In this document: positions 11,402 through 35,763 of the stretch, in pieces | Numbering within the stretch: the first letter of the stretch is position 1 | How the letters are laid out: each line of letters starts with the position of its first letter | NCBI GenBank assembly: GCA_029262455.1 | Contig: JAJCZJ010000087.1 | Location: forward strand, 11,135-75,134 | Source: Deltaproteobacteria bacterium | GTDB taxonomy: Bacteria; Desulfobacterota; Binatia; HRBIN30; CADEER01 | Length of the DNA stretch: 64,000 bases | Reading direction: 5' to 3' | The notes under the pieces: generated by a model | The model's database searches: none | Seen by the model: only the letters and a program-made list of their open reading frames with translations | What the model was told of the DNA's origin: nothing | Program-made: the position numbers and the translations under genes

Positions 11402-11430
11402 TTAGGATCCTCAAGTTTTGTGATTTTGCT

Positions 11431-11515
11431 GGGAGACATTCCGCGATTCTAACGTGCTCAGTTAGCGCAAGATGCGTGCCGAGCCCGAGCCAGCCGGATT
11501 TCGAACCCGTCTCCC
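11431..11515. other. 85-nt structured element closed by a perfect 7-bp helix; tRNA-like features but not a tRNA
   Basis: gggagac (11431-37) pairs with gtctccc (11509-15). Internal hairpins: ctaac-N7-gttag (11449-65), gcgca-aga-tgcgt (11466-78) and a T-arm-like GGGTTCGAAATCC on the minus strand (11498-11510). Lies about 30 nt upstream of the ALDH start on the minus strand. Confidence 0.4.
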
Positions 11516-11731
11516 CCTCTCCAACACGTCGGTTGGGCAAGATCGGGCTGATGAGAGCGAACTCAACGGCGATCATTGTAAAAACGACAGCGGTCCCACG
11601 CACTCCCCCGGCCGGAGCGACTGGAGTTCGCATCGCACCGGACACTTCACTTTGTAGAATCCCCCACCGAGCCGGGGAAGAACTTTCACACAGCCCCATG
11701 CCGACGACAAGGGAGCCTACAACGACCCCAT

Positions 11732-11747
11732 TGGCATACGCCTTGCT
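11732..11747 (+). promoter_or_regulatory. Candidate sigma54 promoter (-24/-12) for the PRC-barrel/BON unit
   Basis: TGGCATacgccTTGCT with GG-N10-GC spacing, about 80 nt upstream of the ATG at 11827. Confidence 0.55.
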
Positions 11748-11826
11748 CACTACAGGTGGACCGAACCGGTTGGCCGGGCCGTAACGGAGCCCGGGATCTA
11801 CTGGCTCCGAAGAGGAGGATAGCGCC

Positions 11827-12177
11827 ATGTCCAAGGCAAATGTACTTTCAGGCAGCAGTGTCACCGGCGACGATGTCGTCAATGGCGCCGGCGAAAACCT
11901 GGGAAGCATCTACGATCTGATGCTCGACGTCGAAAGCGGGATCATCGCGTACGCGGTACTGTCGTTCGGTGGATTTCTCGGAATGGGAGACAAGCTTTTC
12001 GCGGTCCCCTGGGGCGCCCTGCGCCTCGACCAAGCGAAGAAGCGATTTGTCCTGAACGTTCCCAAGGAAACCCTCGAAAAGGCCCCGGGCTTCAACAAAG
12101 ACGATTGGCCCGACTTCGCAGATCGCGATCTCGGAGCCAGCCTCTACAGCTACTACGGAACCAAAGCCTATTGGTAA
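11827..12177 (+). CDS. PRC-barrel domain protein
   Basis: 116 aa with VVNGAGENLGSIYDLMLDVESGIIAYAVLSFGGFLGMGDKLFAVPW, typical of the PRC-barrel family. Confidence 0.8.
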   Translation: MSKANVLSGSSVTGDDVVNGAGENLGSIYDLMLDVESGIIAYAVLSFGGFLGMGDKLFAVPWGALRLDQAKKRFVLNVPKETLEKAPGFNKDDWPDFADRDLGASLYSYYGTKAYW

Positions 12178-12226
12178 TTGAAGAAGCGGCGGCCGATACA
12201 ACCGCCGCGTCGGAAGGAGTCATATC

Positions 12227-13561
12227 ATGAAAAATTTCCGCAGGACTTTCCGGCAGGTGCTCGGCTCAACACTGGCCGCCAGCATCTTCCTATGTAGCGC
12301 CGCTTCGGGCGCTGCCGAAACTAAGGCAACCTGGCGCCCAGACGCTTGGGTAACAGCAAAGACAAAGATGTCACTCGCAACCGACCGCGAAGTCGGTTTC
12401 ACGTACATCAATGTCGACACGGTCAACGGTCGCGTCACTCTCCACGGCAAGGTGTACGACGAGGCCGAGCGGGTTCGCGCCGAAGAGGTCGCCGTCGGCG
12501 TCGAGGGCGCCGTCGAAGTGCGCAACCTACTCCAGGTCGTTCCCAAACCAAAGATGGATCGAGTCAAACAGGTCGACGCGAAAGTCTCTACCGCCGTCAC
12601 GGCAGCTCTCGACGCCAACACAGAACTCGAAGACAGCTCCATCCAGGTGCAGTCAGTCAACGACGGCGTCGTCCTTTTGGCTGGACAGGCGAGTTCACTG
12701 CTGGCACACCTCGAGGCGATTCGGACCGCGAGTCGAGTCGACGGAGTCCGCGATGTAGCTACCGAGATCGAAACTGGCGACCGCCTCTACGACGACAGAC
12801 TCTGGCATGACTCGCCCGCGGCAAGCGAGATCGACGTCGTGGTGGCAGCAGACGACGCCGAAGCGCGTGCAGAAAGCCTGACCAAAAAGACTGTGGATTC
12901 TGTGAAGAAAACAGGTGCCGCCGTCGCCCAAGGCACAAAAGACATGGGCTCCCGCGCCGCAGCTTCAATGAAGAACGCCGGAAAAGCGACGAAGGACTTG
13001 GCCGTCCGGGCGAAGGATGCAACCGTCGAAGCCGCCAGCGACATGGCTGACGCGACTGGCAATGCCGCGTCCACGACGTATGGCGCGGTCAGCGACGCGT
13101 GGATCACATCTGCCACCAAGACGAAGATGCTCGCTGATTCAGACGTTCCGGCGCTGTGGATCAACGTCGACACGTCAGACGGAATCGTGACCCTCTTCGG
13201 CACAGTGGCCTCAGAAAACCAACGGGATGCCGCGGTTCGGATCGCCGGCGATGTCAACGGCGTCGTCAAAGTCAACGACGCTCTCCAGGTCGATACATCG
13301 CTGGCCACGAAAACCGCTGGGGAAGACCGGAAAGACGATCAAATCCAACAGGACATTCGCGACGCGCTCGCAAAACAGTCGCGATTCTCGACGGCGAAAA
13401 TTGATGTGACCGTGGACTCTGGTCAAGTTGAGCTCAGCGGGACAGCGCCAAACTCAGAGGTCAAGATGGCCGCCGCCGTCACCACACGGGCGGTCGATGG
13501 CGTGAGAGCCGTGCGCAACAAGATTCGCGTCAAAGCTAGCGCGGCGGGCGATCAGGGCTAA
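12227..13561 (+). CDS. Secreted multi-BON-domain protein (OsmY-like)
   Basis: Signal peptide plus four BON-like units (VDTVNGRVTLHGKV, VQSVNDGVVLLAGQASS, VDTSDGIVTLFGTVAS, VTVDSGQVELSGTAPN). GGAAGGAG ribosome-binding site. Confidence 0.85.
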   Translation: MKNFRRTFRQVLGSTLAASIFLCSAASGAAETKATWRPDAWVTAKTKMSLATDREVGFTYINVDTVNGRVTLHGKVYDEAERVRAEEVAVGVEGAVEVRNLLQVVPKPKMDRVKQVDAKVSTAVTAALDANTELEDSSIQVQSVNDGVVLLAGQASSLLAHLEAIRTASRVDGVRDVATEIETGDRLYDDRLWHDSPAASEIDVVVAADDAEARAESLTKKTVDSVKKTGAAVAQGTKDMGSRAAASMKNAGKATKDLAVRAKDATVEAASDMADATGNAASTTYGAVSDAWITSATKTKMLADSDVPALWINVDTSDGIVTLFGTVASENQRDAAVRIAGDVNGVVKVNDALQVDTSLATKTAGEDRKDDQIQQDIRDALAKQSRFSTAKIDVTVDSGQVELSGTAPNSEVKMAAAVTTRAVDGVRAVRNKIRVKASAAGDQG

Positions 13562-13582
13562 CGGCTTCGCCTTCGCAACAGG

Positions 13583-13600
13583 CGGCAGCTTCGGCTGCCG
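13583..13600 (+). terminator. Hairpin after the BON gene
   Basis: cggcagc-ttcg-gctgccg (7-bp stem, tetraloop) followed by tt; the U-tract is weak. Confidence 0.4.
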
Positions 13601-13832
13601 TTGGGATCGGGTGCCAGTCGAGCGTCGTCGTAACGAATGTGGGTTCGACAAGTGGCTGGTGGTGGTGGATTGTTCGACGGAAGGACAACTGGCGCCCGCC
13701 CCACCTCCAGCCGCGTTGCGGCGGAGAAAGAAAAAGATTCGCGAACGATGGCGTTGCCGAGCCTCGACCTGCAACGCGAACCTCGACCAGCCGGCTACGT
13801 CCCGAGAGCGCGCTCAAACTGAACCGCCCAGG

Positions 13833-15176
13833 TCAAATCCCCTCTGCCTCGTACAAGTTCAGGCGGTTGTAGAGAGTTTTCAAACTGATCCCGAGAACCT
13901 CCGCCGCTTTTTTCTTGTCTCCGTCGAGGTCATCCAGGGTCGCCAGGATGAGATTGCGTTCGACATCGGCGATGGTTCTGCCGACCTCCAGAGCAGGACC
14001 GGCGGAAGGTTCGTGAGTCGGCGCATCACTGAACAGCTCGGCACCGATTTCATCATCGGCTAGGATGGCCACGCGTTCGATCATGTTTTTGAGTTCCCGG
14101 ACATTTCCGGGCCACGGCAGTTCGGAAAGCCGGCGCTGTGCCTCCTCGGTCATGCGCTTGGCCGAGCCCTCCCGCGCGTTGATCTGGTTCAGAAAATGCT
14201 CGCCCAGTTGCAGGACATCCGGCCCCCGCTCACGAAGCGGCGGCAGTGCGATCGGGAAGACATTCAATCGATAAAACAGATCCTCCCGCAACTTACCTTC
14301 TTCGATCGCTTCGGCAGGGTCTCGATTCGATGCACTCACGACGCGCACATCGACGTCGACGGGTGTTGTGGCGCCGAGCCGGACCACCTCGCCCGCCTCG
14401 AGAGCACGCAGCAGCTTTACCTGCAACTCGATCGGCATCTCTGTAATCTCATCGAGAAAAAGAGTGCCGCCATTGGCAACTTCGAAGTACCCTTGGCGAC
14501 GACTGTCCGCGCCGGTGAAACTGCCTTTCTCGTGGCCGAATAATTCGCTCTCGATGAGGCTTGCCGAAACCGCGCCACAATTGAGAGCGACAAACGGGTG
14601 GTCACGGCGTTTGCTGAGATTGTGAACCGTCTGCGCCACGAGCTCTTTGCCGGTCCCACTTTCGCCGGTGACGAAGACGGAGCTCTGCGTTGGCGCCACA
14701 CGCGAAATGAGATCATAGACTTGCTGCATCGGCGCCGATCGCCCCACCATCTCGCCGAATCGGCCGAGGCCGCGCAGCTCGTCGCGCAGGGACGATACGT
14801 CGCGCCGGAGACCGCGCGTACGCGCGACGTTCATCAGCACGGTTTTCAAGCGAGCACGATCGACCGGCTTCGACAGGTAATCCAGGGCGCCTTTCCGAAG
14901 CGCAGCGACAGCGCTCTCGACCGCTACGTGGCCGGTCATCACAACGAATTCCGTATCCCGCGCCAGTTCTTCGTCTGACAGAAGTTCGAGCCCCTCGCCG
15001 TCCGGCAATACGAGATCGAGAAGAACGACGTCCGGCGCTTGCTCCTCGATTTCACGACGCGCCGCAGCGAGACTATCTGCTTGACGCGTTAGAAACCCTT
15101 CTCGCTCGACCAACATGGCAACACTGGCTCGCAAGTCCTCGTCGTCCTCGACGATCAGTGCCAACAGTTCAGTCAT
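13833..15176 (-). CDS. Sigma54-dependent response regulator (NtrC family bEBP), copy 1
   Basis: Receiver domain (LLDLVLPDGEG), AAA+ domain with GESGTGKE and the sigma54-contact loop GSFTGA, and a C-terminal Fis-type HTH. ATGA overlap with the upstream RR gene. Confidence 0.93.
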   Translation of the reverse strand: MTELLALIVEDDEDLRASVAMLVEREGFLTRQADSLAAARREIEEQAPDVVLLDLVLPDGEGLELLSDEELARDTEFVVMTGHVAVESAVAALRKGALDYLSKPVDRARLKTVLMNVARTRGLRRDVSSLRDELRGLGRFGEMVGRSAPMQQVYDLISRVAPTQSSVFVTGESGTGKELVAQTVHNLSKRRDHPFVALNCGAVSASLIESELFGHEKGSFTGADSRRQGYFEVANGGTLFLDEITEMPIELQVKLLRALEAGEVVRLGATTPVDVDVRVVSASNRDPAEAIEEGKLREDLFYRLNVFPIALPPLRERGPDVLQLGEHFLNQINAREGSAKRMTEEAQRRLSELPWPGNVRELKNMIERVAILADDEIGAELFSDAPTHEPSAGPALEVGRTIADVERNLILATLDDLDGDKKKAAEVLGISLKTLYNRLNLYEAEGI

Positions 15177-15619
15177 ACGGTCGCCGCCTTCGCAGTCTTG
15201 TTCAGCTCAGTCCAGTAACGCGCCGCCTCGGCGTAGTACACACCCGGTCCGCGTGGGTCGAAGCGCTTTAACAGGAAGCTGTTGGCTCCGAGCGCATAGC
15301 TCCGCTCGATATCCTCGGTCCGATCAGAGCTCGAGAGCACGACAACCGGCAGCATCGCCGTGCGCGGATCACTCCGGAGGCGAACTAAGACTTCCCAGCC
15401 GTCAACCCGCGGCATTTTGAGATCCAAGAACACCACTTGCGGCAAGCGCGGCTGCGACACTCGATCCGGCGGCTCCAAGCCCACCGCCTCGAGCGCGCCC
15501 TGACCGTCTACCGCGACCTCCACTTTGACGTCGAGCCCGGAACGACGGAGTGCTCGAAGAGCGACATCGATTTCGTCGCGATCGTCCTCTACGATTAGAA
15601 TCTCTGGAGACCTCTTCAC
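15173..15619 (-). CDS. Single-domain response regulator (CheY-like receiver)
   Basis: EILIVEDDRDEIDVALRAL...VVFLDLKMPRVDGWEVL. GTG at 15619 overlaps the HK stop (GTGA) and is preferred over the ATG at 15685, which would overlap the HK by 70 nt. Confidence 0.85.
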   Translation of the reverse strand: MKRSPEILIVEDDRDEIDVALRALRRSGLDVKVEVAVDGQGALEAVGLEPPDRVSQPRLPQVVFLDLKMPRVDGWEVLVRLRSDPRTAMLPVVVLSSSDRTEDIERSYALGANSFLLKRFDPRGPGVYYAEAARYWTELNKTAKAATV

Positions 15620-17259
15620 GATGATTGTCCTCTCGGTACGGTAAAAGAAAAGCGAGCGCCGGCACCGGGACGGCCAACCGCCCAAACCCGACCGCCGTGG
15701 CGCTTGATGATGCGCGCGACGACGGCCAAACCCACCCCGGCACCCTTGGCACGGTCCGCGGGGTCGATCCGCTCGAAGAGCTCAAACATTTTGGCGGCGA
15801 AGCGGTCTTCAAAACCCCTTCCCGTATCCGATACCTCATACAAGCAGCGATCTTCTTCGATTCGACCACTGACGGTGATCTTCCTCTCGTCGCACCCCCG
15901 TGTATACTTGATGGCGTTACTGAAAAGGTTGACGAAAACGTTTGCCAAGAGCGTCTGATCTCCGATCGCCTCCGGTAGCTCTTCGATGGACAGCTCCACG
16001 TCGGATTGTTCTTCCAACTCTTCGGCGGAACGAGCGTGGACGAACGCGCCGCGCGCCACTTCCGTCATATCGACCGGCTCGCGGGCCAACGCCTCACTGC
16101 CGAGCCGCGAGAACTGCAGAAGACTTTCCAGCAGATCAGTCGCACGCAATGCACTGCGACGGATTCGACCGAGCATCTCCAAGCCTTCGGCGTCCACAAC
16201 CTTATTCTCATAATCCTCCACAAAGATCGCCTCAAAGTTGAGGATCGCACTGAGCGGTGACCGGAGATCGTGAGACACCGTGTAGTTGAAGGCTTTCAAA
16301 TCCCCGACGGCGTCTTCCAACGACGCCGTTCGCTCAGCGATCTTCGATTCGAGCTCGGCCCCACGATCCTCCAGAGCCAGATTGGTCGCCGCCAAGAACC
16401 GGGACTGCTGCAAAATGATGCGCAGCTGGTGGGCGACGATCGCCGACCCAACGGAGAGCAAGAGACCGGCCGCCAACAAATAGTGCGGCAGAGGCGTCAA
16501 CTGCCGCGTCGCCAACGACTTCGTCGGACGGAGCGTCAGCATCCAAGCACCCCCGTGCGGCAAAGAGACAGTCTCGGTGACACTCCACCAGCCTTGCGAT
16601 GGGTCGATCGAGGGCGTCCCGCGCGAATAGATCGGCTCGCCATTCCAACCTACGACCAATGCATAACCGACCGCGCGGGCGCGGAGTGTTGACTTCAGAA
16701 ACGGCTCGACGGCAAAACGAGCCGCCAAGCGCCCCGTTTTCCTCTCCGTAGAATGAACAGGCAGGACGACCCAGTAAGAATAGTCGCCGCTCTCGTCGCG
16801 TTCCGGGGCCAACACGTGTGGCTCTTTGAGGTCGGCAGGCAAACCCTTCAAATCGTCAATTTCTTGGGGTCGGGTCTGTTCTTCCGCTACCACCCAACGG
16901 AGCCTCTGTCCGCCGGTCTGCCAGGCGACGTAATCGAGGCCCGGCAGTCGATCCACGCGGTTATCAAGGAGACTTTGCCACTCCTCTTGAGACCTGCTGA
17001 CGAGCATGCTCGAAAGATCGCCTACCAACTGTAGGTTCCCGATCTGCAGATCCAGCTGCGATTTCAGCGCGTTCGTCGTGTGCGAGGCGACAACGGATGT
17101 TGACTTGAGGAGCCGCTCCCTGCGATCGGTGACCATTCGCACCCAAACGGTAGTCGAGAGAACAACCCCTGCCAGCCCAACGATCAAGGGGAGCCAAGCC
17201 CCCCGCCCGAGCCTGGGCAAAAGGTCCTCTCGCCCACCTCGTTTCTTCGATTGCCTCAT
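15616..17259 (-). CDS. Membrane sensor histidine kinase with a large extracytoplasmic domain
   Basis: N-terminal TM helix, about 230-aa periplasmic region, second TM helix, HisKA H-box (VSHDLRSPL) and HATPase_c (GAGVGLAVV). ATG at 17259; an alternative TTG lies at 17292. Confidence 0.88.
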   Translation of the reverse strand: MRQSKKRGGREDLLPRLGRGAWLPLIVGLAGVVLSTTVWVRMVTDRRERLLKSTSVVASHTTNALKSQLDLQIGNLQLVGDLSSMLVSRSQEEWQSLLDNRVDRLPGLDYVAWQTGGQRLRWVVAEEQTRPQEIDDLKGLPADLKEPHVLAPERDESGDYSYWVVLPVHSTERKTGRLAARFAVEPFLKSTLRARAVGYALVVGWNGEPIYSRGTPSIDPSQGWWSVTETVSLPHGGAWMLTLRPTKSLATRQLTPLPHYLLAAGLLLSVGSAIVAHQLRIILQQSRFLAATNLALEDRGAELESKIAERTASLEDAVGDLKAFNYTVSHDLRSPLSAILNFEAIFVEDYENKVVDAEGLEMLGRIRRSALRATDLLESLLQFSRLGSEALAREPVDMTEVARGAFVHARSAEELEEQSDVELSIEELPEAIGDQTLLANVFVNLFSNAIKYTRGCDERKITVSGRIEEDRCLYEVSDTGRGFEDRFAAKMFELFERIDPADRAKGAGVGLAVVARIIKRHGGRVWAVGRPGAGARFSFTVPRGQSS

Positions 17260-17548
17260 GTCTCTGGAGTCGTGCAACACGGCCTTCGTCAATCCGCTAG
17301 GCGAGTCTCAAAAGTCTCAGTGGTTGGCCCATGCCATCGAACGAGACATTCTCGAGAACTCAAACACTACCAAATCCCGTGCTCCATATGCTCGATCGAG
17401 GCCTGCGACTGGTGCGTTTGCGTGCTCTCTTTCAACACTCCTACACCCACGGCCTCCTCGAACCTTCCCATTCGCACAAAATGCAAAAGGAAGTTCAACA
17501 GGATCCCAAGACTGGAAGCAGCAACCCCAAACACAACTATAAAATGGC

Positions 17549-17564
17549 TGGCACACAATATGCT
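17549..17564 (+). promoter_or_regulatory. Candidate sigma54 promoter upstream of the SRPBCC gene
   Basis: TGGCACacaatATGCT with GG-N10-GC spacing. It lies very close to the annotated GTG at 17579, so the true start may be the TTG at 17603. Confidence 0.4.
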
Positions 17565-17578
17565 GCCGATAGCGGGAC

Positions 17579-18088
17579 GTGGGTTGTTCCAACGAAAACA
17601 CATTGCAATTTTCGTCAGCACTCAGAGAGTCCGTCATCGTCGACGCGCCCATTGAGGCGGCCTTTGCAAGCTGGCAAGAATACGCGGAATTGCCTTCCAA
17701 AATGGAAAGTGTGAGCCAAGTGAAGCTCATCACTCCCACTTGGTTGCTCTGGGAACTCAACATCGCTGGATACCAGCTCCTCTGGGAGGCAGAGATCACG
17801 TCCACAACGCATCCCCGTCGAATCATTTGGGAGGGCCGCAGAGGCGCTCGGCACGCCGGCGAAGTCCGCTTCGACGAAGTCGCGCCATCGCGCACTCGAG
17901 TCACCGTCAGCATCTCCTACAACCCAAGCACTCTCGCCCAGCTCGGGCTCGCTCGCCTCGGCGCAGTAGACCTGTGCGTCCGCCGAAACCTGATCTGCTT
18001 TCAGCGATCGCTCGAGCGCAACCGAAAGACCGGCATCTTGGCAATCACCCTCCTGTCGCATAGCGATCGATCGGCCCACGGCGCCTAG
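17579..18088 (+). CDS. SRPBCC (polyketide cyclase/dehydrase-like) domain protein
   Basis: RESVIVDAPIEAAFASWQEYAELPSKMESV...IIWEGRRGARHAGEVRFDEVAPSRTRVTV, the typical SRPBCC layout. Confidence 0.7.
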   Translation: MGCSNENTLQFSSALRESVIVDAPIEAAFASWQEYAELPSKMESVSQVKLITPTWLLWELNIAGYQLLWEAEITSTTHPRRIIWEGRRGARHAGEVRFDEVAPSRTRVTVSISYNPSTLAQLGLARLGAVDLCVRRNLICFQRSLERNRKTGILAITLLSHSDRSAHGA

Positions 18089-18711
18089 AACCGCGACGCG
18101 ACTTCTTGGGTCGGTTGCAGAACCCCACAACCAAATCGTTTGCCCGCTCCGCCGCTCGGATTGCTGCTGTGGTCGTCGGTTCCCTGGTGAACGACGACCG
18201 CTGCGCCGTCGTCATCGAGCAAGCGACGCTCTCCCTCGCACACGTTGAGCCAAGGGGCAAAAAATTCTACCGCGACCGCTCCGCTCTCGGGGACGTGTAA
18301 GTTCGGCAAATCTCCATAATGGAAACCTGCCGTGTTTCGGTATCCATGCTCCACATCGGTGGGATTGAAATGCCCTCCGGAAGCAGAGAAATCGGGAGCG
18401 CACACGCCCTTCTCGTGGATGTGAAAACCGTGAACCCCAGCCGACAGACCTCTCAGCCGGGCCCGAACGATCACACCGTTCGGACCGTCCGCAATCACAA
18501 CATTACCGACGTCCTCGTTAGCCGAATTGCGCACCACGGCGGTCGCCGTACACTCCAGCGACTCGCCAACATCCGCCGACAGATGAGACATCAGGAAAAT
18601 ACTCACCCCGCCCGCCACAACCGCGATCGTGACCACTCGCAGTATGGCAGTGATGAGCGTTCGACCCATCGATCCGCGAAAAGAGTCCCCGATCGTCGAT
18701 TCTAGCCGCAT
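18085..18711 (-). CDS. sodC: Periplasmic Cu/Zn superoxide dismutase
   Basis: GVHGFHIHEKGVC, GGHFNP, GDLPNL and HQGTDDHSSNPSGGAGKRFGCGVL. ATG at 18711 with GGGAG 7 nt upstream; a longer GTG ORF extends to 18729. Confidence 0.92.
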   Translation of the reverse strand: MRLESTIGDSFRGSMGRTLITAILRVVTIAVVAGGVSIFLMSHLSADVGESLECTATAVVRNSANEDVGNVVIADGPNGVIVRARLRGLSAGVHGFHIHEKGVCAPDFSASGGHFNPTDVEHGYRNTAGFHYGDLPNLHVPESGAVAVEFFAPWLNVCEGERRLLDDDGAAVVVHQGTDDHSSNPSGGAGKRFGCGVLQPTQEVASRF

Positions 18712-18851
18712 CGCACTACTCCCGCCCACGGATTGGGCACATTGTGAAGAAGGTACACACTCAGCAATAAAAGATTCATTGTTCTCCCTGCATTCAAGTT
18801 CGAGACCACTCTACATATCACAGAGGCAAGGCCGAGTATTTCCCCACGATG

Positions 18852-18867
18852 AGCAGCGACCGTGCCC
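18852..18867 (-). promoter_or_regulatory. Candidate sigma54 promoter for sodC
   Basis: Minus strand reads GGGCACggtcgCTGCT with GG-N10-GC spacing, about 125-140 nt upstream of the sodC start. Confidence 0.4.
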
Positions 18868-28594: not shown

Positions 28595-28792
28595 CTAGAT
28601 CTTGTCCGCCCATTCCTTCAACTGCCGTTCTGCTTCTTCCTTCGCGATGCCGTGCCGCTCCTGGATTTTCCCCAGCAGCTGATCACGCTTCCCCTCAACA
28701 ATGTCGAGGTCGTCATCCGTGAGCTTGCCCCACTTCTCCTGGACCTTCCCTTTGAATTGCACCCAGTTGCCTTCAACTTGATCCCAGTTCAT
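28595..28792 (-). CDS. CsbD-family general stress protein
   Basis: MNWDQVEGNWVQFKGKVQEKWGKLTDDDLDIVEGKRDQLLGKIQERHG is the CsbD signature. Confidence 0.9.
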   Translation of the reverse strand: MNWDQVEGNWVQFKGKVQEKWGKLTDDDLDIVEGKRDQLLGKIQERHGIAKEEAERQLKEWADKI

Positions 28793-28852: not shown

Positions 28853-28868
28853 TGCAATCTCCCTGCCA
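28853..28868 (-). promoter_or_regulatory. Candidate sigma54 promoter for the csbD-like unit
   Basis: Minus strand reads TGGCAGggagaTTGCA with GG-N10-GC spacing, about 60 nt upstream of the ATG. Confidence 0.55.
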
Positions 28869-28966: not shown

Positions 28967-30094
28967 TCACTTCCCGAGCACAGCGCCCACGACCTTCAGC
29001 GAATCAATGTTGTCGCAGAAGATCTTGATCGCTGCGAGTGTCGGTACAGCGATGATGGCGCCGGGAATGCCCCACAACCACGACCAAATCAGTAGGCTAG
29101 TAAAAACAGCGACCGGGCTCAGCGCCAGACTGCCGCCGAGAAGACTCGGAGTCAGCACCAGCCCCTCAAACGAAGAGAGGCCTGCGAACATCAAAGCCGG
29201 GACAGCCGCCTGTCCCAACGAGTCGAAATGGACTAATCCGACTGCGAACAAGATCAGCGTATTGGTGGCGCTTCCAAGCAGAGGAATGTAGTTCAGCACA
29301 GCGCCCATGACGCCCCAGAGCAGAGGGTTGGGCATTCCAATCGAATACATGGCCAGGGTCGTCGCCGTGCCCAATCCCAAGTTGATCGCCGAAATTGTCA
29401 GCAGGTAACGCGAAATCTCTGACTCTGTTTGTTGCAACAGCTCCGATGCCATCCGCTTGTCCGCGACCCGCGGCATGTTCTGCACGACCTTCTCGACAAA
29501 CGCGTTCCCCGAGGCGAGCAGGAAGTAAAGTAGAACGACCACTGTCGCGAACGTCGTAACCAGAGACTGCGCCTGACTTACGATCACTTCTGCCAGGTTG
29601 GACTCTCGCACCTCGACACTCTCGGAGGATTGCCCCATTCCGGCCATTGCTTCAACTTTATCCGCGGCCTCGATTACTTCCGCGATCGGGTCGCGGACGA
29701 CCCGCAACTTGCGCTCGATCTTTCGCAAGCTCGCGGGAAGCCGTTTCCCCCACTCCTGAGCCGGCTCCGCCAAAGACATCAAGCCACCGATGGTGATTCC
29801 GAGTACGCTCAATACGACGAGCGCCGCCCCGATCGGAACCGGAATACGCAGGCGCGACAGTCCTCTAACGATCGGCGTCAGCGAGAAATTCGTCAGTAAT
29901 GCGAAGAGAATCGGAAAGATAAGGCTTTCGGCAATCCGCAACGTATGGAACAGCATCAACAAGAACAGCCCGGTCAATGCAACGGAGCGGATATCAATCG
30001 GCTGCGGGCGGGGGTTTCCACTAGATGTCGCCACATCGGCCGTGCCCGGCTTCGTCTCGGCGTCACGCGCTGGTCGTTCATCGGGATTGGTCAT
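28967..30094 (-). CDS. AI-2E family transporter (PerM/UPF0118)
   Basis: Multi-TM protein ending in WSWLWGIPGAIIAVPTLAAIKIFCDNI. 4-nt overlap with the upstream gene. Confidence 0.85.
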   Translation of the reverse strand: MTNPDERPARDAETKPGTADVATSSGNPRPQPIDIRSVALTGLFLLMLFHTLRIAESLIFPILFALLTNFSLTPIVRGLSRLRIPVPIGAALVVLSVLGITIGGLMSLAEPAQEWGKRLPASLRKIERKLRVVRDPIAEVIEAADKVEAMAGMGQSSESVEVRESNLAEVIVSQAQSLVTTFATVVVLLYFLLASGNAFVEKVVQNMPRVADKRMASELLQQTESEISRYLLTISAINLGLGTATTLAMYSIGMPNPLLWGVMGAVLNYIPLLGSATNTLILFAVGLVHFDSLGQAAVPALMFAGLSSFEGLVLTPSLLGGSLALSPVAVFTSLLIWSWLWGIPGAIIAVPTLAAIKIFCDNIDSLKVVGAVLGK

Positions 30095-31380
30095 ACCGGG
30101 GCCGCCACTTCATCTGGGGTAGTCGAGCATCGATCGATAAAACGCTGAATCACCTCACGGCGGGACGCCAGCGTCGTTCTTTCGAGTAACTCGGAGAGGT
30201 TTCGGGACAGATGCGCGCACACCGCCAGGTCGCGTCTGGCATGCGGAATCAAAATTGTCAGCGTACCAGAGATTAAACCTTCAAAGGTGGTTGGTTCAGC
30301 CACAAGGCGGACAACCTCATCCGCATCCCAGCGGAGTGGTACCGCATCCTTGCGATCGGCAAACGCCTTGAATCCACTGATCAGCCAACTGATACAATCG
30401 AAGGCCGTATAGGGGTCATTGACACCCGGCGATAAGGCGCGCACGGCCATCTCCACCAACTCGTCAGCCGGAAACCGCACGTCCTGGAGGGCGGTTCGAG
30501 TCGCGCCGACAACGAACGCATTGCGGAACTCCGCAACACTATCTTCGCTTAGAGAGTCTGCTCCGTAGACCGTCAACAAGGCATCACCCGCACTCACGAA
30601 ATCCCCCGGTCTCCGCAATCCGCGGACGACGACGTCCGACTCCTTGGCCTGTTGAACCAATAGATCACCGCCCATGCTCTGGATGAATCCCGTCCACTCG
30701 CACTTGATCGTTGTCGCGATGCCGTCGGGCGGAGGCGTCCACGAGGCCTCAACTTCGCCGGGATCTCCGATTCTCTCTGGGAACAACGATTCAACATGTA
30801 CTTCCAACTCACGCCCGATGCCGGCGATTACATTCGAGACATGAATGCTGCGCGGCACGTGGTGGATAAAGAAGATCAGGACCGCAATGCTAGCAACAGC
30901 GAGAAAGAGCGCGACCAACACCGCGACGTGGGGAACGAATGCCCCGATTGCATCGATGTCTGCCGATGCCTCTTGTGCCGTACGCACGGTTCGCAGCACC
31001 AAGATGCAATAGAGAAACGTCGCAATAAAGGTTCCCAGCGTGACCTGGTTGCCACTATCCGCCATGAAGTTGGAAATCACTCGCGGTCCGTATTGTCCCG
31101 AGGCGTAAACAACCGACACGATCGTGATCGAGAACGTCACACCAGCTACGCCGATCATCGAGCCTGCAACTGTCGACAGCAGCGCGCGGGCCCCCGCTGG
31201 CTCGTTCTGGTACAGAAACCTGACCTCGCGAATCCACTGGTCGCCTGCCCATTGATCGAACCTGGTCGCCGCCAACGACAACGCCATTGCAGATATCGCC
31301 ATCACAGCGGGAACGAACCAGTAGCTCGACCGAAGCTGGTGCAAATACAAGCGTAACCGATCTCTCATCTCGCTCTCCAT
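30091..31380 (-). CDS. DUF2254-like membrane protein
   Basis: N-terminus LYLHQLRSSYWFVPAVMAISAMAL, four TM helices, then a soluble C-terminal domain. Assigned from recollection of the family. Confidence 0.6.
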   Translation of the reverse strand: MESEMRDRLRLYLHQLRSSYWFVPAVMAISAMALSLAATRFDQWAGDQWIREVRFLYQNEPAGARALLSTVAGSMIGVAGVTFSITIVSVVYASGQYGPRVISNFMADSGNQVTLGTFIATFLYCILVLRTVRTAQEASADIDAIGAFVPHVAVLVALFLAVASIAVLIFFIHHVPRSIHVSNVIAGIGRELEVHVESLFPERIGDPGEVEASWTPPPDGIATTIKCEWTGFIQSMGGDLLVQQAKESDVVVRGLRRPGDFVSAGDALLTVYGADSLSEDSVAEFRNAFVVGATRTALQDVRFPADELVEMAVRALSPGVNDPYTAFDCISWLISGFKAFADRKDAVPLRWDADEVVRLVAEPTTFEGLISGTLTILIPHARRDLAVCAHLSRNLSELLERTTLASRREVIQRFIDRCSTTPDEVAAPV

Positions 31381-31666
31381 GCCCAGGTCCCGGACGGTGG
31401 GTCAAGATAGGTGGATGAGAACCAACACGTCGTTCACGACGAATACAAACTTGCGACTGCTCAAAAAACACACGGTCTTTGGCTGTCTGGACTCTCCGTC
31501 ACCCGCAGGCAACGCAAGGTGCGCTGCGCCTCGTCATTGCCGATAATACTTCAAACCACCAGTGCGTGATGACCCGCATGAATCCGGATTCTGCAGGAGT
31601 TTGCAAATCTTACAGGAAATATTTTTCTCCCTCATTTAGCGATCGCGGCCGAAGCGCCCGAGGCAG

Positions 31667-31682
31667 TGGCCCAACTCTTGCA
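31667..31682 (+). promoter_or_regulatory. Candidate sigma54 promoter for the 31752-34653 operon
   Basis: TGGCCCaactcTTGCA with GG-N10-GC spacing, about 70 nt upstream of the ATG at 31752. Confidence 0.5.
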
Positions 31683-31751: not shown

Positions 31752-31913
31752 ATGAAGATCGCACGAAGGGCACCATGGACTGGGCTACTCGCAACAGTCT
31801 TAGTAAGCACCACGCTCGCTGTTGCGGGATGCGACGACGACGATGGACTTATCGAGAACGCTGGCGAAGCAGTCGAGGATGTCGCCGACGATGTAAGCGA
31901 CGCCGTCGACTGA
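31752..31913 (+). CDS. Small acidic lipoprotein (53 aa)
   Basis: MKIARRAPWTGLLATVLVSTTLAVAGC has a canonical lipobox (VAGC), followed by a D/E-rich tail. GGAGGG ribosome-binding site. Confidence 0.65.
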   Translation: MKIARRAPWTGLLATVLVSTTLAVAGCDDDDGLIENAGEAVEDVADDVSDAVD

Positions 31914-31925
31914 TCGGAGCCTCCA

Positions 31926-32291
31926 ATGAACACGAGCCACGAAAGGCCGGGCCGTCAACCAGGACCGATCGAAGCATTCTCGGAGGTCGTCCAGTCGAGT
32001 CAGGACGTCGTCATGCGACGGATCGAAGTCCTGCGGCTCGAAACCTTGGAACGCTTCGAAACACTTCGCGGCGAAGTGATCAGCCTCATCGCGGCCGCCA
32101 TCTTAGCGGTTTCAGCATGGGCCCTATGCCTCGGCGGGGTGGTTATCTTACTGGCAAAGAGTATCGGGCTGGCCCCGGCATTGCTCGCGCTCGGGGCAAC
32201 TCTGACGATCCTCGCATTCGTCATTCTTCGCCTCCAGGCTGCGCCGGATCCCACGATCGCAACTGGCGACGCTGAAGTTGACTCTCGGTGA
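31926..32291 (+). CDS. YqjE/Holin-X-like (former DUF1469) two-TM membrane protein
   Basis: Amphipathic N-terminus and then two TM helices (LIAAAILAVSAWALCLGGVVILL; LAPALLALGATLTILAFVILRL). Confidence 0.5.
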   Translation: MNTSHERPGRQPGPIEAFSEVVQSSQDVVMRRIEVLRLETLERFETLRGEVISLIAAAILAVSAWALCLGGVVILLAKSIGLAPALLALGATLTILAFVILRLQAAPDPTIATGDAEVDSR

Positions 32292-32521
32292 CGAACCAAC
32301 CCAAGGGGCCAAAGATTGTGGACTTAGACGTTGAACTCGAACGCGCCAAAGAGGCCGCGGCCGATAGCGAGCGCGAACTGGCCGTAGCCTACAGTCGCTT
32401 TGATCAAGCCCTACGACAACCGCTCGGGATCGCGCAGCGAATACGCGACGACCCCGTCCGATGGATTGCCGGCGCATTCGCCGCCGGACTCATCGTAGCT
32501 CAGATCCGAAAAAGGGGATAA
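32288..32521 (+). CDS. Small tail-anchored hypothetical protein
   Basis: Coiled N-terminus and C-terminal WIAGAFAAGLIVAQI. GTGA overlap with the upstream gene. Confidence 0.45.
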   Translation: MTNQPKGPKIVDLDVELERAKEAAADSERELAVAYSRFDQALRQPLGIAQRIRDDPVRWIAGAFAAGLIVAQIRKRG

Positions 32522-32523
32522 GC

Positions 32524-32724
32524 ATGCCACAAGACACTTCGACAATGCTGGAGGACTTTGCGCGCGGTCGCATCTCTTCGGAGGAAGCGCAGGAGATCTT
32601 CTTGAAGAATGCGCGACTGGCCGAGCGACGGGCCCGGAGACTCGCTGTGCGGCGCCCATTCTTAGCTGTCGGGATCGCTGTCGCCACGGGGTACCTCGCT
32701 GGCCGATTGGTGACGCGATGGTAA
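32524..32724 (+). CDS. DUF883/ElaB-YqjD-like tail-anchored protein (66 aa)
   Basis: C-terminal RRPFLAVGIAVATGYLAGRLVTRW resembles the ElaB/YqjD membrane anchor. ATG at 32524. Confidence 0.5.
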   Translation: MPQDTSTMLEDFARGRISSEEAQEIFLKNARLAERRARRLAVRRPFLAVGIAVATGYLAGRLVTRW

Positions 32725-33035
32725 CAGACGCGAGCACGACCGATGGCCGAGGCCGTGGCGATCTAGTCGACGACGTGCGCCAAATGGCAGACGACGCGGG
32801 GCGCTTGGTGCAAAACGCCAAACAGTCCGGCATGGACGCCCGCGCCCTCATCTCAGAACACCCCTACGCCGCCTTGGCGACAGCCGCGACCGCAGGATTC
32901 GTTCTCGGTGGCGGGCTCTCACCCGCAATCGTGCGGGTGGCGATCGGTCTCGCCGGGCGAGCAGCCCTCGCAAGTCTCATTGGAACCGCAGCGGCAATCG
33001 TGAACCCCGACACCTCCGGCGAGTCGCAGCGGTAA
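32718..33035 (+). CDS. DUF883-like membrane-anchored protein
   Basis: EHPYAALATAATAGFVLGGGL anchor motif. Overlaps the upstream gene as ATGGTAA. Confidence 0.5.
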   Translation: MVTDASTTDGRGRGDLVDDVRQMADDAGRLVQNAKQSGMDARALISEHPYAALATAATAGFVLGGGLSPAIVRVAIGLAGRAALASLIGTAAAIVNPDTSGESQR

Positions 33036-33088
33036 TAATCCGGCCAGCCTAGGATGCTTTCGGATCCAGGCATGGGAAAGGAACAATC

Positions 33089-33355
33089 ATGGCATCAAAC
33101 GCAAACGAATTATTTGAGCAGTTGATCGCGCGAGCGAACGGCGGTTCTCGCGCGAGTAGTACCGATATGCTGCCTGGGCTCGCTGCCTTCGGCATCGGAG
33201 TTCTGGTCGGAGCCGGCGTAGCCCTCCTCTTCGCTCCGGCTAGCGGTGACGAACTTCGCGAGAATATATCCGAGCGACTCGACGACTTGAAAGATAGCGC
33301 CAGTCAAGCTCTCGGAACGCAGGACGACGAAGCAAAAGTCGGTCTTGAAACGTGA
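33089..33355 (+). CDS. YtxH-domain protein
   Basis: AAFGIGVLVGAGVALLFAPASGDELRENISERLDDLKD is the YtxH signature. Confidence 0.8.
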   Translation: MASNANELFEQLIARANGGSRASSTDMLPGLAAFGIGVLVGAGVALLFAPASGDELRENISERLDDLKDSASQALGTQDDEAKVGLET

Positions 33356-34653
33356 AACCGGGCCCCCTCTGGGCTGAGACGCCACCGGCTCGGCTCGGCC
33401 GGGCTCTGGCCTGCGCGCTGCTCAGCGTCTGTGCATTTGGCGCGCCGACCGCGTTCGCCGTAACGGACGGTGAGATCACCCGGCGCCTGAACACCGCCTA
33501 CGACACCGCAGAAGGGCTCGATAAGGTCGATGCCAAGGTGGTCCACGGAGCCGTCCGCCTGACCGGGGTAGTCTTGAGTTCGAGTGACAGCGAACGCGCG
33601 GTTGCCCTCGCAGAGGAGATGGAAGGCGTCACCGTCGTAAGCGACGAGCTCCGCGTCGAGAGAGGTGTGTCCGCGCGACTCGGCCCAGTGGTGAGTCGCC
33701 TGCGACAAAACCTCTACGACTTCTTGGCGTTCCTACCGCTTGTCGCGGTCGCGGCATTAGTCTTGGTGGTTTTCTGGGGGCTGTCGCGCCTGCTCAAGAA
33801 ACCGACTCGAATTTACAACCGCGTCGCAGGAAATTCGCTCTTGGGTGAGCTACTCGCACGCCTGGTGAGTGTTTCCTTCCTCGTGATCGGTGTTCTAATG
33901 GCGCTCGAGATCCTCGACGCGACGGCTTTGGTCAGCGCCGTCTTGGGGACCGCGGGCGTCGCTGGACTAGCCGTCGGCTTCGCTTTTCGCGACATCATGG
34001 AGAATTACGTTGCCGGTGTCCTTCTCAGCGTCCGCCAGCCTTTCGCGCCAAGCGATGTGGTGAAAATCGGGCCGGATACGGGGACGGTCATCCGCTTGAC
34101 ATCACGAGCAACCATTTTGATGACGGAAGAAGGCAACCATCTGCGGATCCCCAACGCCACCGTCTTCAAGGAAACGATCCTCAACTACACACGCAATCCG
34201 GAACGGCGCTTCGACTTCGGCGTTGGCGTCGGAATGCAAGAAAACCTTGTCGATGTCCGGGAGCTCGGGGCAAAGATTCTCGGCGACATGGAAGGCGTTC
34301 TCGCCAAACCAGAACCCACTTCACGCATCGAACCTCTGGGAGACTTCAGTGTCACCATCCGATTCTACGCCTGGGTCGACCAAGCACATCACGACTTCTT
34401 CAAGGTGCGAAGCGAGGCGATCCGTTTAGTCAAGCGCGCCTTTGACCACGCAGAAATCGAAATGCCGGAACCGATCCAACGGCTGCGGATCGAAGAAGCG
34501 CCAGGCCCCAACACTGAGACACAACCTTCAGGTGCGTCGACCGAAACAGCTGAAGCTACCGACGTCTCGCGAGATGCCGAGTTGGACCGCCGCATCGAAG
34601 AGGAACGAGCCGAAGAAGAAGACCTTCTGAACAAAGAGGCTCCGAAGGAGTGA
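33352..34653 (+). CDS. MscS-family mechanosensitive channel with an N-terminal periplasmic BON domain
   Basis: BON-like VHGAVRLTGVVLSSSDSERAVALAEEMEGVTVVSDEL, TM helices, and an MscS beta-domain (VRQPFAPSDVVKIGPDTGTVIRLTSRATILMTEEGNHLRIPNATV). Confidence 0.85.
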   Translation: MKPGPLWAETPPARLGRALACALLSVCAFGAPTAFAVTDGEITRRLNTAYDTAEGLDKVDAKVVHGAVRLTGVVLSSSDSERAVALAEEMEGVTVVSDELRVERGVSARLGPVVSRLRQNLYDFLAFLPLVAVAALVLVVFWGLSRLLKKPTRIYNRVAGNSLLGELLARLVSVSFLVIGVLMALEILDATALVSAVLGTAGVAGLAVGFAFRDIMENYVAGVLLSVRQPFAPSDVVKIGPDTGTVIRLTSRATILMTEEGNHLRIPNATVFKETILNYTRNPERRFDFGVGVGMQENLVDVRELGAKILGDMEGVLAKPEPTSRIEPLGDFSVTIRFYAWVDQAHHDFFKVRSEAIRLVKRAFDHAEIEMPEPIQRLRIEEAPGPNTETQPSGASTETAEATDVSRDAELDRRIEEERAEEEDLLNKEAPKE

Positions 34654-34726
34654 GCCATCTGTAGTAATTGCAGGACTTCGCCTAAGCCGGATCCCCGAAA
34701 CACAACGGAGATTACAGTCTTCGAGT

Positions 34727-34742
34727 TGGCATGCTTCTCGCT
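34727..34742 (+). promoter_or_regulatory. Candidate sigma54 promoter for the DUF1328 gene
   Basis: TGGCATgcttcTCGCT with GG-N10-GC spacing, about 70 nt upstream of the ATG at 34813. Confidence 0.45.
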
Positions 34743-34812
34743 TTTTCATCTCTGTAACATTGCAGAACTCAACCCCTTGTCGGGATTACAATATAATTCA
34801 GGAGGAGGACTC

Positions 34813-34980
34813 ATGCTCAATTGGTCGGTTACGTTTTTCGTCATCGCCCTGATCGCAGCTCTGTTGGGCTTCGGCGGTATCGCCGGCTCTGCGGTCGGAA
34901 TCGCCAAGATTCTGTTCTTAGTGTTCTTGGTCCTTTTTGTTGTGTCACTCGTCGTTCCGAAGATGCGGCCACCAACCTGA
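34813..34980 (+). CDS. DUF1328 (YtjA/UPF0391) small membrane protein
   Basis: [52 protein letters not shown] ribosome-binding site. Confidence 0.85.
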
Positions 34981-35009
34981 TCGAACCAATCATCCGGTAC
35001 AAGAAGTGA

Positions 35010-35041
35010 GGGCCGGGCGGCTAGAAGTAGCTGCCCGGCCC
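35010..35041. terminator. Bidirectional hairpin between the DUF1328 and sodB genes
   Basis: gggccgggcgg-N10-ctgcccggccc (11-bp stem including one G-U pair), followed by tttctcg on the plus strand. Confidence 0.6.
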
Positions 35042-35063
35042 TTTCTCGTTGCCGCCTCCGGCG

Positions 35064-35660
35064 CTACTTGTTGGCCACACTCTGAAAGTTCTCTTCCGCG
35101 AATTTCCAGTTCACCAGGTGATCGAGATAGGCTTCGATATACTTGCCCCTCTCATTCTGGAAATCGAGGTAGTACGCGTGCTCCCACACATCGAGAGTCA
35201 GCAGTGGAGTATGCCCTTGCCGCACTGGGGTGTCCGCATCCGAACTGCTCATGACCGCGAGGGACCCGTCGTTCTTGCATATCAACCATGCCCATCCTGA
35301 ACCAAACTCGCCTGCCGCAGCTTCGCTGAACGACTCCCGAAAACCGTCCACTCCACCGAGGTCGCGGTCGACCGCCTTCAAGAGTGCCCCGGCCGGTCCT
35401 CCCCCACCTTTGGGCGACAAACAGTCCCAGTAGAACGAGTGGTTCCAGATCTGGGCGGCAAAATTAAACACTTTCCCTTTGCGCGTTCGAATCATCTCCA
35501 AAAGGCTCAGATCCGCGGCATCGGTACCCTCGATCTCAGACTTGAGTTTATCCACATATCCTTTGTGATGCTTACCGTGGTGTATTTCGAGGGTCTTGGC
35601 ACTGATGTGCGGCTCCAGAGCGTCGGTCGAATAAGGTAGTTTTGTCAGCTCAATCTTCAT
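35064..35660 (-). CDS. sodB: Fe/Mn-family superoxide dismutase (Fe-type likely)
   Basis: LPYSTDALEPHISAKTLEIHHGKHH and DVWEHAYYLDFQNERGKYI. ATG at 35660 (MKIEL) with GGAGGAA upstream. Confidence 0.92.
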   Translation of the reverse strand: MKIELTKLPYSTDALEPHISAKTLEIHHGKHHKGYVDKLKSEIEGTDAADLSLLEMIRTRKGKVFNFAAQIWNHSFYWDCLSPKGGGGPAGALLKAVDRDLGGVDGFRESFSEAAAGEFGSGWAWLICKNDGSLAVMSSSDADTPVRQGHTPLLTLDVWEHAYYLDFQNERGKYIEAYLDHLVNWKFAEENFQSVANK

Positions 35661-35685
35661 CTGTTCCTCCATAGCCAACACGGCA

Positions 35686-35701
35686 CGCCATTATTGTGCC
35701 A
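35686..35701 (-). promoter_or_regulatory. Weak candidate sigma54 promoter for sodB
   Basis: Minus strand reads TGGCACaataaTGGCG with correct GG-N10-GC spacing. The -12 box is poor and the leader is very short. Confidence 0.35.
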
Positions 35702-35763
35702 TCGCGGACACGCCGTATTTCCCGAGCCGCGGGGGGAGGTTGCGATTGTAAAGACTACTCGAG

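Follow-up and report, generated by a model that had tools for sequence, protein, structure and literature searches.

The window analysed here, 64,000 nucleotides of the 75.8-kb contig JAJCZJ010000087.1 from a genome deposited as Deltaproteobacteria bacterium (assembly GCA_029262455.1; Binatia in the GTDB lineage), holds between ~11.4 and 39.8 kb a run of genes whose content is that of a general stress regulon, with BON, CsbD, DUF1328, YtxH, Pmp3 and PRC-barrel proteins, SodC and a DUF883-like protein. Among them lie the genes of two bacterial enhancer-binding proteins (bEBPs), bEBP1 at 13833-15176 (-) and bEBP2 at 25905-27311 (+), and a series of sites resembling the -24/-12 promoters of sigma-54. 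An initial annotation, made from the letters alone, had inferred a stress-gene cluster of ~24 kb (11402-35763) under enhancer-dependent sigma-54 control. That inference finds support here and the cluster is real, with an extent of ~28 kb instead. We consider it likely that the region is a chromosomal stress-protection cluster driven by sigma-54, with its own bEBPs acting through a shared enhancer and its units induced together. We are led to this reading by the enriched, intergenic and oriented sites, the two bEBPs, the lack of sigma-70 consensus promoters, the recurrence across phyla and an enhancer motif learned from foreign DNA. Its transcription units, at least ten in number, would encode proteins for envelope and osmotic protection, small stress proteins of the membrane, enzymes against oxidative stress and a synthase for storage lipids.

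Promoter candidates were scored on both strands with an approximate, Barrios-type position weight matrix (PWM; TGGCACG-N4-TTGCW, maximum 18.6 bits), over a gene map drawn from a codon-usage model and Pfam. A GC3-based gene calling with greedy choice of the longest open reading frame (ORF) was dropped because it mis-called several genes and lost, for example, the PRC-barrel gene. Ten sites in the window reach 14 bits, where 200 dinucleotide-preserving shuffles lead one to expect 0.79 and never gave more than 4; the initial annotation had itself proposed such a comparison with shuffled DNA. All ten are intergenic, in a window of which intergenic DNA makes up 15%, and shuffled intergenic DNA gives 0.135. 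Each points towards its downstream gene, except for one that faces a structured non-coding stretch, and nine of the ten are followed by an ORF 16-222 nt 3' of the predicted start, with Shine-Dalgarno sequences in the leaders. The conserved GG and GC stand exactly 10 nt apart in a TGGCAC-N5-TTGCW context, as in the -24/-12 class. A separate pattern search of the whole window gave 13 matches against 2.9 expected, a number reached by none of 100 shuffles. Of 13 intergenic copies of the word TGGCA[CT], 8 have a TGC at the correct distance after them, as opposed to none of 42 genic copies, which bears out a distinction previously drawn by eye. In the metabolic flanks (1-11.4 kb and 40-64 kb) no site reaches 14 bits.

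The 12 promoter strings listed in the initial annotation were all found where it had put them. Eight of these score 14.2-17.7 bits (11732+, 17549+, 22435+, 23051+, 27967-, 28868-, 31667+ and 34727+), and two further strong sites lie beyond its interval, at 39219-39234 (-; 14.9 bits) and 39525-39540 (-; 15.3 bits). The remaining four (18867-, 18961+, 22205- and 35701-, before sodC, a Cys-rich ORF, the hemerythrin gene and sodB) score 10.6-11.5 bits, a range that hits within genes also reach (for example 11.2 bits at 33407 and 12.3 bits at 32170), and are therefore not individually significant. A scan for sigma-70 promoters, which covered the E. coli-type consensus only and not that of extracytoplasmic function (ECF) factors, found none in any intergenic region of the cluster; its two hits in 28 kb are both genic, against ~6 expected. 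With -24/-12 promoters and this outcome of the E. coli-type scan, the cluster does not have the character of one controlled by an alternative sigma-70-family factor.

Both bEBPs carry a receiver domain (PF00072), an AAA+ domain (PF00158) and a Fis-type helix-turn-helix (HTH; PF02954), the domains of NtrC-class (group I) activators. Their catalytic motifs are intact, namely Walker A (GESGxGK), Walker B (LFLDE), the arginine finger (REDLxYRL) and the GSFTGA loop, an Ala to Ser variant of GAFTGA, which is present in both as first annotated. The two proteins are 52% identical, and their HTH helices, LGISLKTLYNRL in bEBP1 and LGVSLKTLYNRL in bEBP2, have near-identical recognition helices. For comparison we assembled 80 loci around bEBP2 homologues (49-56% identity) from one-per-species genomes of Burkholderiales, Binatia, Acidobacteriota, Eisenbacteria and others. 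Both window bEBPs have the recognition helix LG[IV]SLKTLYNRL, as do at least 59 of the 80 orthologues, which is what a shared enhancer would predict. Neither protein reaches the curated cutoff of any NCBIfam equivalog (NtrC, AtoC, ZraR, GlrR, LuxO, PspF, NorR and others), the best scores being 387-412 bits against cutoffs of 559-800 (NtrC 387/559, AtoC 412/714; further ZraR 333/760 and PspF 280/444).

Rather than being confined to one organism, the arrangement recurs across phyla. In the 80 foreign loci the PWM finds 167 sigma-54 sites scoring 13.5 bits or more, where shuffled sequence gives 29. Of 44 homologues of the cluster's families, 13 have a site of 12 bits or more in the 400 nt before the gene; among 1,969 control ORFs the proportion is 5.3% (p = 5.5e-7, odds ratio 7.4). 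This signal is carried by CsbD, DUF1328, hemerythrin and phospholipase D-like (PLD) proteins; AI-2E and SodB lack it, in agreement with the window. An unbiased Pfam tally over the 130 ORFs behind foreign sigma-54 sites is headed by trehalose-6-P synthase (OtsA) and sigma-54 itself (9 each), followed by CsbD, BON, DUF1328 and histidine kinases (HisKA) with 5 each, DJ-1/PfpI and DUF883 with 3 each, and hemerythrin, PLD, DUF2383 and Catalase-C, the last in two foreign loci, with 2 each. The ORFs behind these sites are a textbook general-stress set. Two Binatia loci (L002 and L005) have a similar neighbourhood of CsbD, SRPBCC, YtxH, bEBP, PLD, endonuclease/exonuclease/phosphatase (EEP) and DUF1328 genes.

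A second rpoN lies a few kb from the bEBP homologues in loci of Caballeronia and Trinickia (L024, L027, L029, L030, L033-L036, L040 and L043) and of Ralstonia (L011 and L017), and also in L015, L077, L063 and L069. Its product begins MPPSLELRTKQ..LTPRLQQSV.LLQLS and has the Sigma54 AID, CBD and DBD domains. Before the gene stands a sigma-54 site close to the consensus (up to 18.4 bits), with a GTGTAAAAACTGCG element ~92 nt upstream, a layout which implies that this dedicated second sigma-54 would be positively autoregulated. In Caballeronia/Paraburkholderia loci (L024, L027, L029, L030, L033-L036, L040, L044, L051, L055, L056 and L059), OtsA (Glyco_transf_20) lies at ~12.3-12.7 kb with a sigma-54 site 48-60 nt upstream; in the same loci a small proline-rich ORF (..PEPxxPPxPP..) stands directly 3' of the bEBP gene, with a conserved ~13.8-bit site before it. 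The lineage has been little sampled, and its taxonomic placement is tentative. The best relatives of the window's own proteins are 56% identical for bEBP2 (GTDB genomes), 58% for DUF2254 (metagenomes) and 55% for the 4xBON protein (a set of 5.8 billion proteins), and the one other record of the window's DNA is a Logan contig of 5.5 kb. Relatives as distant as this, at 55-58% identity, do not allow single promoters to be footprinted phylogenetically.

The comparison also points to a candidate enhancer, TGTA-N5-T(A/G)C. A TTGTA(A/G) core, seen by eye and then by k-mer statistics, recurs upstream of the window promoters, and 15 of its 16 intergenic copies fall within the cluster. The word TGTAA[AG]A was counted 32 times in the 36.3 kb that lie before foreign sigma-54 sites and a single time in 41.6 kb of non-coding control DNA of matched GC content. 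Near the foreign sites it is found in both orientations, with a peak 60-110 nt upstream of the -24 box, and extends to TGTA-N5-T(A/G)C(A/G), as in the element GTGTAAAAACTGCG before the Caballeronia rpoN2. A PWM for this upstream activating sequence (UAS) was trained on the foreign loci only and then run over the window. Of its six best window hits (at least 13 bits), five are placed at 43-158 nt before sigma-54-type sites, where they would serve the PRC-BON operon, the shared DUF4112/hemerythrin region, the Rho_N-like gene, the YqjE operon and sodB. The intergenic hits of at least 11 bits all fall (7 of 7) in the zones 30-170 nt upstream of such sites, which make up 16% of intergenic DNA (p = 3e-6). 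Two models built on the window itself were set aside: a one-site-per-sequence expectation-maximisation run on 10 upstream regions was over-fitted and gave differing weak sites in some regions, so that the foreign-trained model was preferred, and k-mer enrichment (ATTGTAA, p = 4e-5 uncorrected) would alone fail multiple-testing correction.

Most gene calls of the initial annotation agree with Pfam, namely PRC, 4xBON, SRPBCC, SodC, hemerythrin, DUF4112, CsbD, YtxH, MscS+BON, DUF1328, SodB and the two bEBPs, while its Rho_N, DUF883 and YqjE assignments correspond to sub-threshold Pfam hits. At the left end, the strongest promoter of the list (11732-11747, +; TGGCATACGCCTTGCT; 17.7 bits; intergenic; predicted leader ~70 nt) precedes an operon of a PRC-barrel gene (11827-12177, +; PF05239, 6e-17) and an OsmY-like gene with four BON domains (12227-13561, +; PF04972, 7e-58), and a candidate UAS (cATTGTAAAAACGACAg; 11574-11592; 13.8 bits with the foreign-trained PWM) lies 158 nt upstream of it. 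A weak sigma-54-like site (CGGCACGCATCTTGCG; 11466-11481, -; 11.0 bits) is located 55-80 nt upstream of an aldehyde dehydrogenase gene (10028-11401) and 93 nt from the UAS at 11574, which it would share with the divergent PRC-BON promoter; the regulon may extend one gene leftward, to this dehydrogenase. Further left, at 6644-9831 (-), are two paralogous genes in tandem whose products (525 and 537 aa) resemble di-haem oxidoreductases/peroxidases and have a DHOR domain; no sigma-54 site is associated with the pair. Far outside the cluster, two tandem Acido-Lenti-1 RNA motifs (Rfam RF01687; 47 and 38 bits) occupy 564-608 and 627-671 (+), unexpected for a Myxococcota-like organism, which is the placement suggested by homologues of the isocitrate dehydrogenase (IDH). 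An Rfam scan of the cluster found no known RNA.

To the right of the PRC-BON operon lies the regulatory operon (13833-17292, -; Pfam), which encodes bEBP1, a stand-alone receiver (15173-15619) and HK1 (15616-17292), a membrane histidine kinase with a large extracytoplasmic domain; the PWM scan found no sigma-54 site upstream of it. It is followed by the promoter of the SRPBCC gene (17603-18088), at 17549-17564 (+; 15.2 bits; intergenic), for which the best UAS hit scores 6.7 bits. SodC (18085-18729, -; Pfam) and a Cys-rich ORF (19092-19250, +) are preceded by the two weak divergent sites, at 18852-18867 (-; 11.0 bits) and 18961-18976 (+; 11.5 bits), near a UAS-like hit of 11.4 bits at 18882; the status of both sites is uncertain. 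The ORF, first called a metallothionein, has 52 aa with 9 cysteines and no Pfam hit. The hemerythrin (21707-22156), EEP (20848-21600) and PLD (19362-20954) genes, all on the minus strand, form a probable operon behind a weak site at 22190-22205 (-; 10.9 bits), which has UAS hits 52 and 137 nt upstream. Homologues of hemerythrin and PLD in L002, L005, L007 and L012 are preceded by sites of 15-15.6 bits, and these comparative data, with the enhancer sites, would partly rescue the hemerythrin site.

The two UAS copies in question (22257-22275, cTTGAAAGAGTTGCg, 10.7 bits; 22342-22360 (-), ATTGTAAGAGTTTCg, 14.3 bits) are common to the hemerythrin promoter and to the divergent promoter of DUF4112 (gene 22537-22968; PF13430, 4e-35), at 22435-22450 (+; 14.9 bits). 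A further UAS (ATTGTAAGATCTGCG; 22981-22999, +; 13.7 bits) stands 70 nt upstream of the promoter at 23051-23066 (+; 15.3 bits), which precedes the Rho_N-like gene (23218-23811) and Pmp3 (23915-24100; PF01679, 1e-22). Between these and bEBP2, on the same strand, is a wax-ester synthase/diacylglycerol acyltransferase (WS/DGAT; 24265-25722, +; 3e-71). The shared strand suggests that read-through from the 23051 promoter may extend into WS/DGAT and bEBP2, which hints that storage-lipid synthesis and the activator could be co-induced. bEBP2 itself (REC, Sigma54_activat and HTH_8 domains) is followed by a convergent gene for a repeat lipoprotein (ATG ~27912, end 27541) with a promoter at 27952-27967 (-; 16.2 bits); three TTGTAR cores lie 40-81 nt upstream of this promoter, where the best UAS PWM score is just 8.4 bits. 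The CsbD gene (28595-28792; PF05532, 2e-20) and orf125 (28213-28590) have their promoter at 28853-28868 (-; 15.6 bits), and 5 of 10 foreign CsbD homologues are preceded by sites of at least 13 bits. The adjoining AI-2E and DUF2254 operon (28967-31380, -) is without a sigma-54 site.

The best UAS in the window (CTGTAAGATTTGCAA; 31599-31617, -; 15.7 bits) lies 68 nt upstream of a promoter at 31667-31682 (+; 14.4 bits). The operon behind it (31752-34653; Pfam) has seven genes, for a small lipoprotein, a YqjE-like protein, two small ORFs, a DUF883-like protein, YtxH and MscS+BON. A similar spacing of 70 nt separates the UAS CTGTAGTAATTGCAG (34657-34675, +; 11.5 bits) from the promoter of DUF1328/YtjA (gene 34813-34980; Pfam, NCBIfam), at 34727-34742 (+; 14.2 bits), and all five foreign DUF1328 homologues have upstream sites (11.7-18.6 bits). 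SodB (35064-~35660, ATG ~35660, -; Pfam) has the weak site TGGCACAATAATGGCG (35686-35701, -; 10.6 bits), with a UAS of 13.4 bits (35744-35762) 43 nt upstream, and none of three foreign SodB homologues has a sigma-54 site; partly rescued by its enhancer hit, the sodB site would be a possible promoter. Next come a soluble histidine kinase (35764-37017, -; HisKA, HATPase_c), which is a candidate partner of the orphan bEBP2, a beta-propeller protein (37151-38233, -) and a secreted Cys-rich protein of 199 aa (38388-38987, -).

The promoter at 39219-39234 (-; 14.9 bits) stands 222 nt upstream of the gene for this Cys-rich protein. Almost directly 3' of it, in the leader, is a terminator-like hairpin (GAGCGCAGCGCTC plus AAAATTTTTT, 39190-39202), possibly an attenuator, or else the 3' terminus of a longer RNA begun at the next promoter, 39525-39540 (-; 15.3 bits). 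This latter promoter is the one without a downstream ORF. The ~115 nt after its predicted start (~39515) fold stably into a pair of hairpins (z = -3.0), with a short U-run after the second, and the region 39400-39540 holds neither an ORF nor an Rfam match. The folding suggests that the site may drive a sigma-54-dependent small RNA of ~115 nt within the regulon. By eye, GAAGTTC/GAACTTC-like words were seen upstream of the 17549, 39219 and 39525 promoters (17470-17500, 39286-39330 and 39590-39620), with a GAAGTTC-N17-GAACTTC dyad before the 39219 promoter; such dyads could be a second enhancer type. Just beyond the cluster, between divergent enoyl-CoA hydratase genes (39807-40613, -; 40846-41622, +), the sequence at 40751-40767, previously taken for a similar match outside the island, is a perfect palindrome, TGGCA-N7-TGCCA, and is probably an operator for a repressor or activator and not a sigma-54 promoter. 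A mobile 'genomic island' was also considered and rejected, as there are no mobility genes among the Pfam-scanned ORFs and GC content and composition are near those of the flanks.

In the mechanism that we envisage, a stress signal would lead to autophosphorylation of a kinase (HK1 with the stand-alone receiver, and perhaps the soluble kinase for bEBP2) and then to phosphorylation of the receiver domain of a bEBP. The bEBP would oligomerise on TGTA-N5-T(A/G)C enhancers ~45-160 nt upstream of the -24 box and, by ATP hydrolysis through its GSFTGA loop, convert the closed complex of the sigma-54 holoenzyme to the open complex. All units, behind ten or more promoters, would then be jointly induced. 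We infer from the DNA the dependence on sigma-54 in vivo, the assignment of bEBPs to promoters, the nature of the signals and the generality of the response.

Several observations weigh against this account. The frequencies of the sigma-54 PWM approximate the Barrios compilation and the published consensus and do not come from a curated matrix. In the PWM scan, AI-2E/DUF2254, sodC and the regulator operon lack a convincing sigma-54 site. The ORFs of the 64-kb window include no rpoN or Sigma54-domain protein, so that the presence of sigma-54 rests on the two bEBPs, whose intact domains imply that the genome would encode it. Among the strong promoters, 17549, 39219 and 39525 have no good hit with the foreign-trained UAS PWM, and 27952 and 28853 have degenerate UAS cores only. 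The motif that seeded the UAS search had first been noticed in the window, though the PWM was trained on foreign DNA only. Many of the foreign loci belong to related Burkholderiales, so their counts are not phylogenetically independent, and the databases searched hold no close relatives, with at most 58% identity. Finally, 'general stress', or induction by multiple stresses, would be a reading of gene content and not of expression.

On this last point the same promoter and enhancer machinery could serve a single-purpose programme, osmotic or desiccation-related, or one of dormancy or development, instead of a general stress response. The gene set does lean towards the envelope, osmotic protection and storage (BON, MscS, Pmp3, DUF1328 and WS/DGAT here, OtsA in relatives), and the number of sensor kinases, just two, speaks for few inputs. 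Among taxon-labelled homologues of the monomeric IDH, the closest (77-82% identity) come from Myxococcota and 'Deltaproteobacteria' metagenome-assembled genomes; in Myxococcota, dormancy-type programmes are common and many sigma-54 activators are used for development. However, oxidative-stress genes are present too, with hemerythrin and SodB/SodC nearby and DJ-1 and catalase-C in relatives, and the module recurs in non-developmental Burkholderiales and in Acidobacteriota. In Burkholderia pseudomallei, moreover, RpoN2 reportedly affects katE under starvation and oxidative stress (PMC6004011). We regard a single-purpose programme as unlikely, if worth keeping in view.

The machinery itself might also be misread. 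The -24/-12 matches could be real and yet mostly not the main promoters, with a sigma-70-family or ECF factor dominant and few units dependent on sigma-54. The restriction of the sigma-70 scan to the E. coli-type consensus leaves room for this, as do the four listed sites at background score and the dependence of the same gene families on sigma-S, sigma-B or EcfG in proteobacteria, firmicutes and alphaproteobacteria, which is established knowledge. Nevertheless, chance cannot explain ten strong, oriented and exclusively intergenic sites, which co-occur with an independently learned enhancer motif and two cluster-encoded bEBPs, and the same families stand behind sigma-54 sites in other phyla; such a minor role for sigma-54 is in our judgement highly improbable. 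More improbable still, to the point of being hardly credible, is that TGGCAC-N5-TTGC is the operator of an unrelated DNA-binding protein. Although the 40751 match is a perfect palindrome of the kind typical of operators, the cluster sites are asymmetric, always directed gene-ward and in agreement with the sigma-54 consensus at every conserved position, and in relatives such sites lie beside bEBPs and upstream of rpoN paralogues.

Beyond the cluster that we take to be sigma-54-driven and induced as a whole, a broader proposal can be made more tentatively. The bEBP family with the LG[IV]SLKTLYNRL helix, the TGTA-N5-T(A/G)C enhancer and sigma-54 may together form a widespread, hitherto unrecognised general stress pathway, with a dedicated, autoregulated RpoN2 in Burkholderiales; we hold this for an open possibility that at present has somewhat more against it than for it. 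To our knowledge, it is largely unknown how general stress responses are coordinated outside Proteobacteria, Firmicutes and Alphaproteobacteria. If the proposal is true, the pathway would be a fourth solution beside sigma-S, sigma-B and EcfG for lineages without them (Myxococcota-like bacteria, Binatia, Acidobacteriota), and it would explain what the orphan genes rpoN2 and Rsp1667/Rsp1668 do in Ralstonia, Caballeronia and Paraburkholderia. It is a concrete candidate, with a specific activator family, an enhancer motif and predictable targets (CsbD, DUF1328, BON/OsmY, DUF883, OtsA, DJ-1, hemerythrin and PLD). Mutants of rpoN2 reportedly show little phenotype under the conditions tried. Ralstonia and Caballeronia/Paraburkholderia are genetically tractable, so the prediction for RpoN2 and its neighbouring activators is directly testable. 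Compared with systems based on sigma competition, an enhancer-dependent stress regulon would have no basal leak, ATP gating and two-component input. The surprise is moderate, since several roles of sigma-54 in stress are known already and Myxococcota make heavy use of it.

The mechanism would be that of a standard bEBP/sigma-54 system, while its regulon, activator family and enhancer seem not to have been described before; our search of the open-access literature turned up no sigma-54/bEBP regulon made of these families, an absence that is no proof. PspF, ZraR, NorR, RtcR and the Nla activators of Myxococcus offer the general plan of an AAA+ activator, an upstream enhancer, sigma-54 holoenzyme and a stress response, and ZraSR and NtrBC that of two-component input. 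However, PspF, ZraR, NorR, RtcR and Nla govern one or a few operons of specific function and not a broad set of general-stress type. The enhancer also differs from that of NifA, TGT-N10-ACA, in that it reads TGT-N7-AC.

The closest described parallel is with Ralstonia solanacearum GMI1000, whose RpoN2 is Rsp1671 and in which Rsp1667 and Rsp1668 were listed without assigned function by Lundgren et al. 2015 (PMC4676750), with the EBP gene and rpoN2 as their only predicted targets; the open-access literature describes no regulon, enhancer or stress role for them. In the Ralstonia loci, L011 and L017, two divergent bEBPs are 52-58% identical to those of the window and belong to the same recognition-helix family, and the bEBP gene and rpoN2 lie behind strong sigma-54 sites that have an upstream element of the TGTAAAAATTAC type. 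The window differs from this Ralstonia/Burkholderiales module in having no rpoN paralogue beside its bEBPs, where nine foreign loci have one, and in having at least 10 linked target operons, as opposed to 2-4 per 20 kb in Ralstonia. In B. pseudomallei, RpoN2 (BPSS2218, chromosome 2) is reportedly a positive regulator of katE in starvation and oxidative stress (PMC6004011 and PMC13192269, both citing Diep et al. 2015); the words enhancer, activator and consensus are absent from Diep et al. 2015 itself (PMC4745423). This is a stress function linked to sigma-54 in a group of organisms whose loci share the bEBP family, and katE has a parallel in the Catalase-C-domain proteins behind sigma-54 sites in two foreign loci.

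The content of the cluster can be compared with the regulons of sigma-S in E. coli, sigma-B in B. subtilis and EcfG in Alphaproteobacteria, to which these stress families are known to belong. OsmY/BON, YjbJ/CsbD, ElaB-YqjD/DUF883, YqjE, YtjA/DUF1328, YtxH, Pmp3/YqaE, SodC and PRC-barrel proteins are held in common with the window, and OtsA, DJ-1 and catalase with its relatives. Those three regulators are sigma-70-family factors, controlled by proteolysis, partner switching or anti-sigma factors. The promoters of the window, in contrast, are of the -24/-12 type, which need an ATP-dependent activator bound at a distance.

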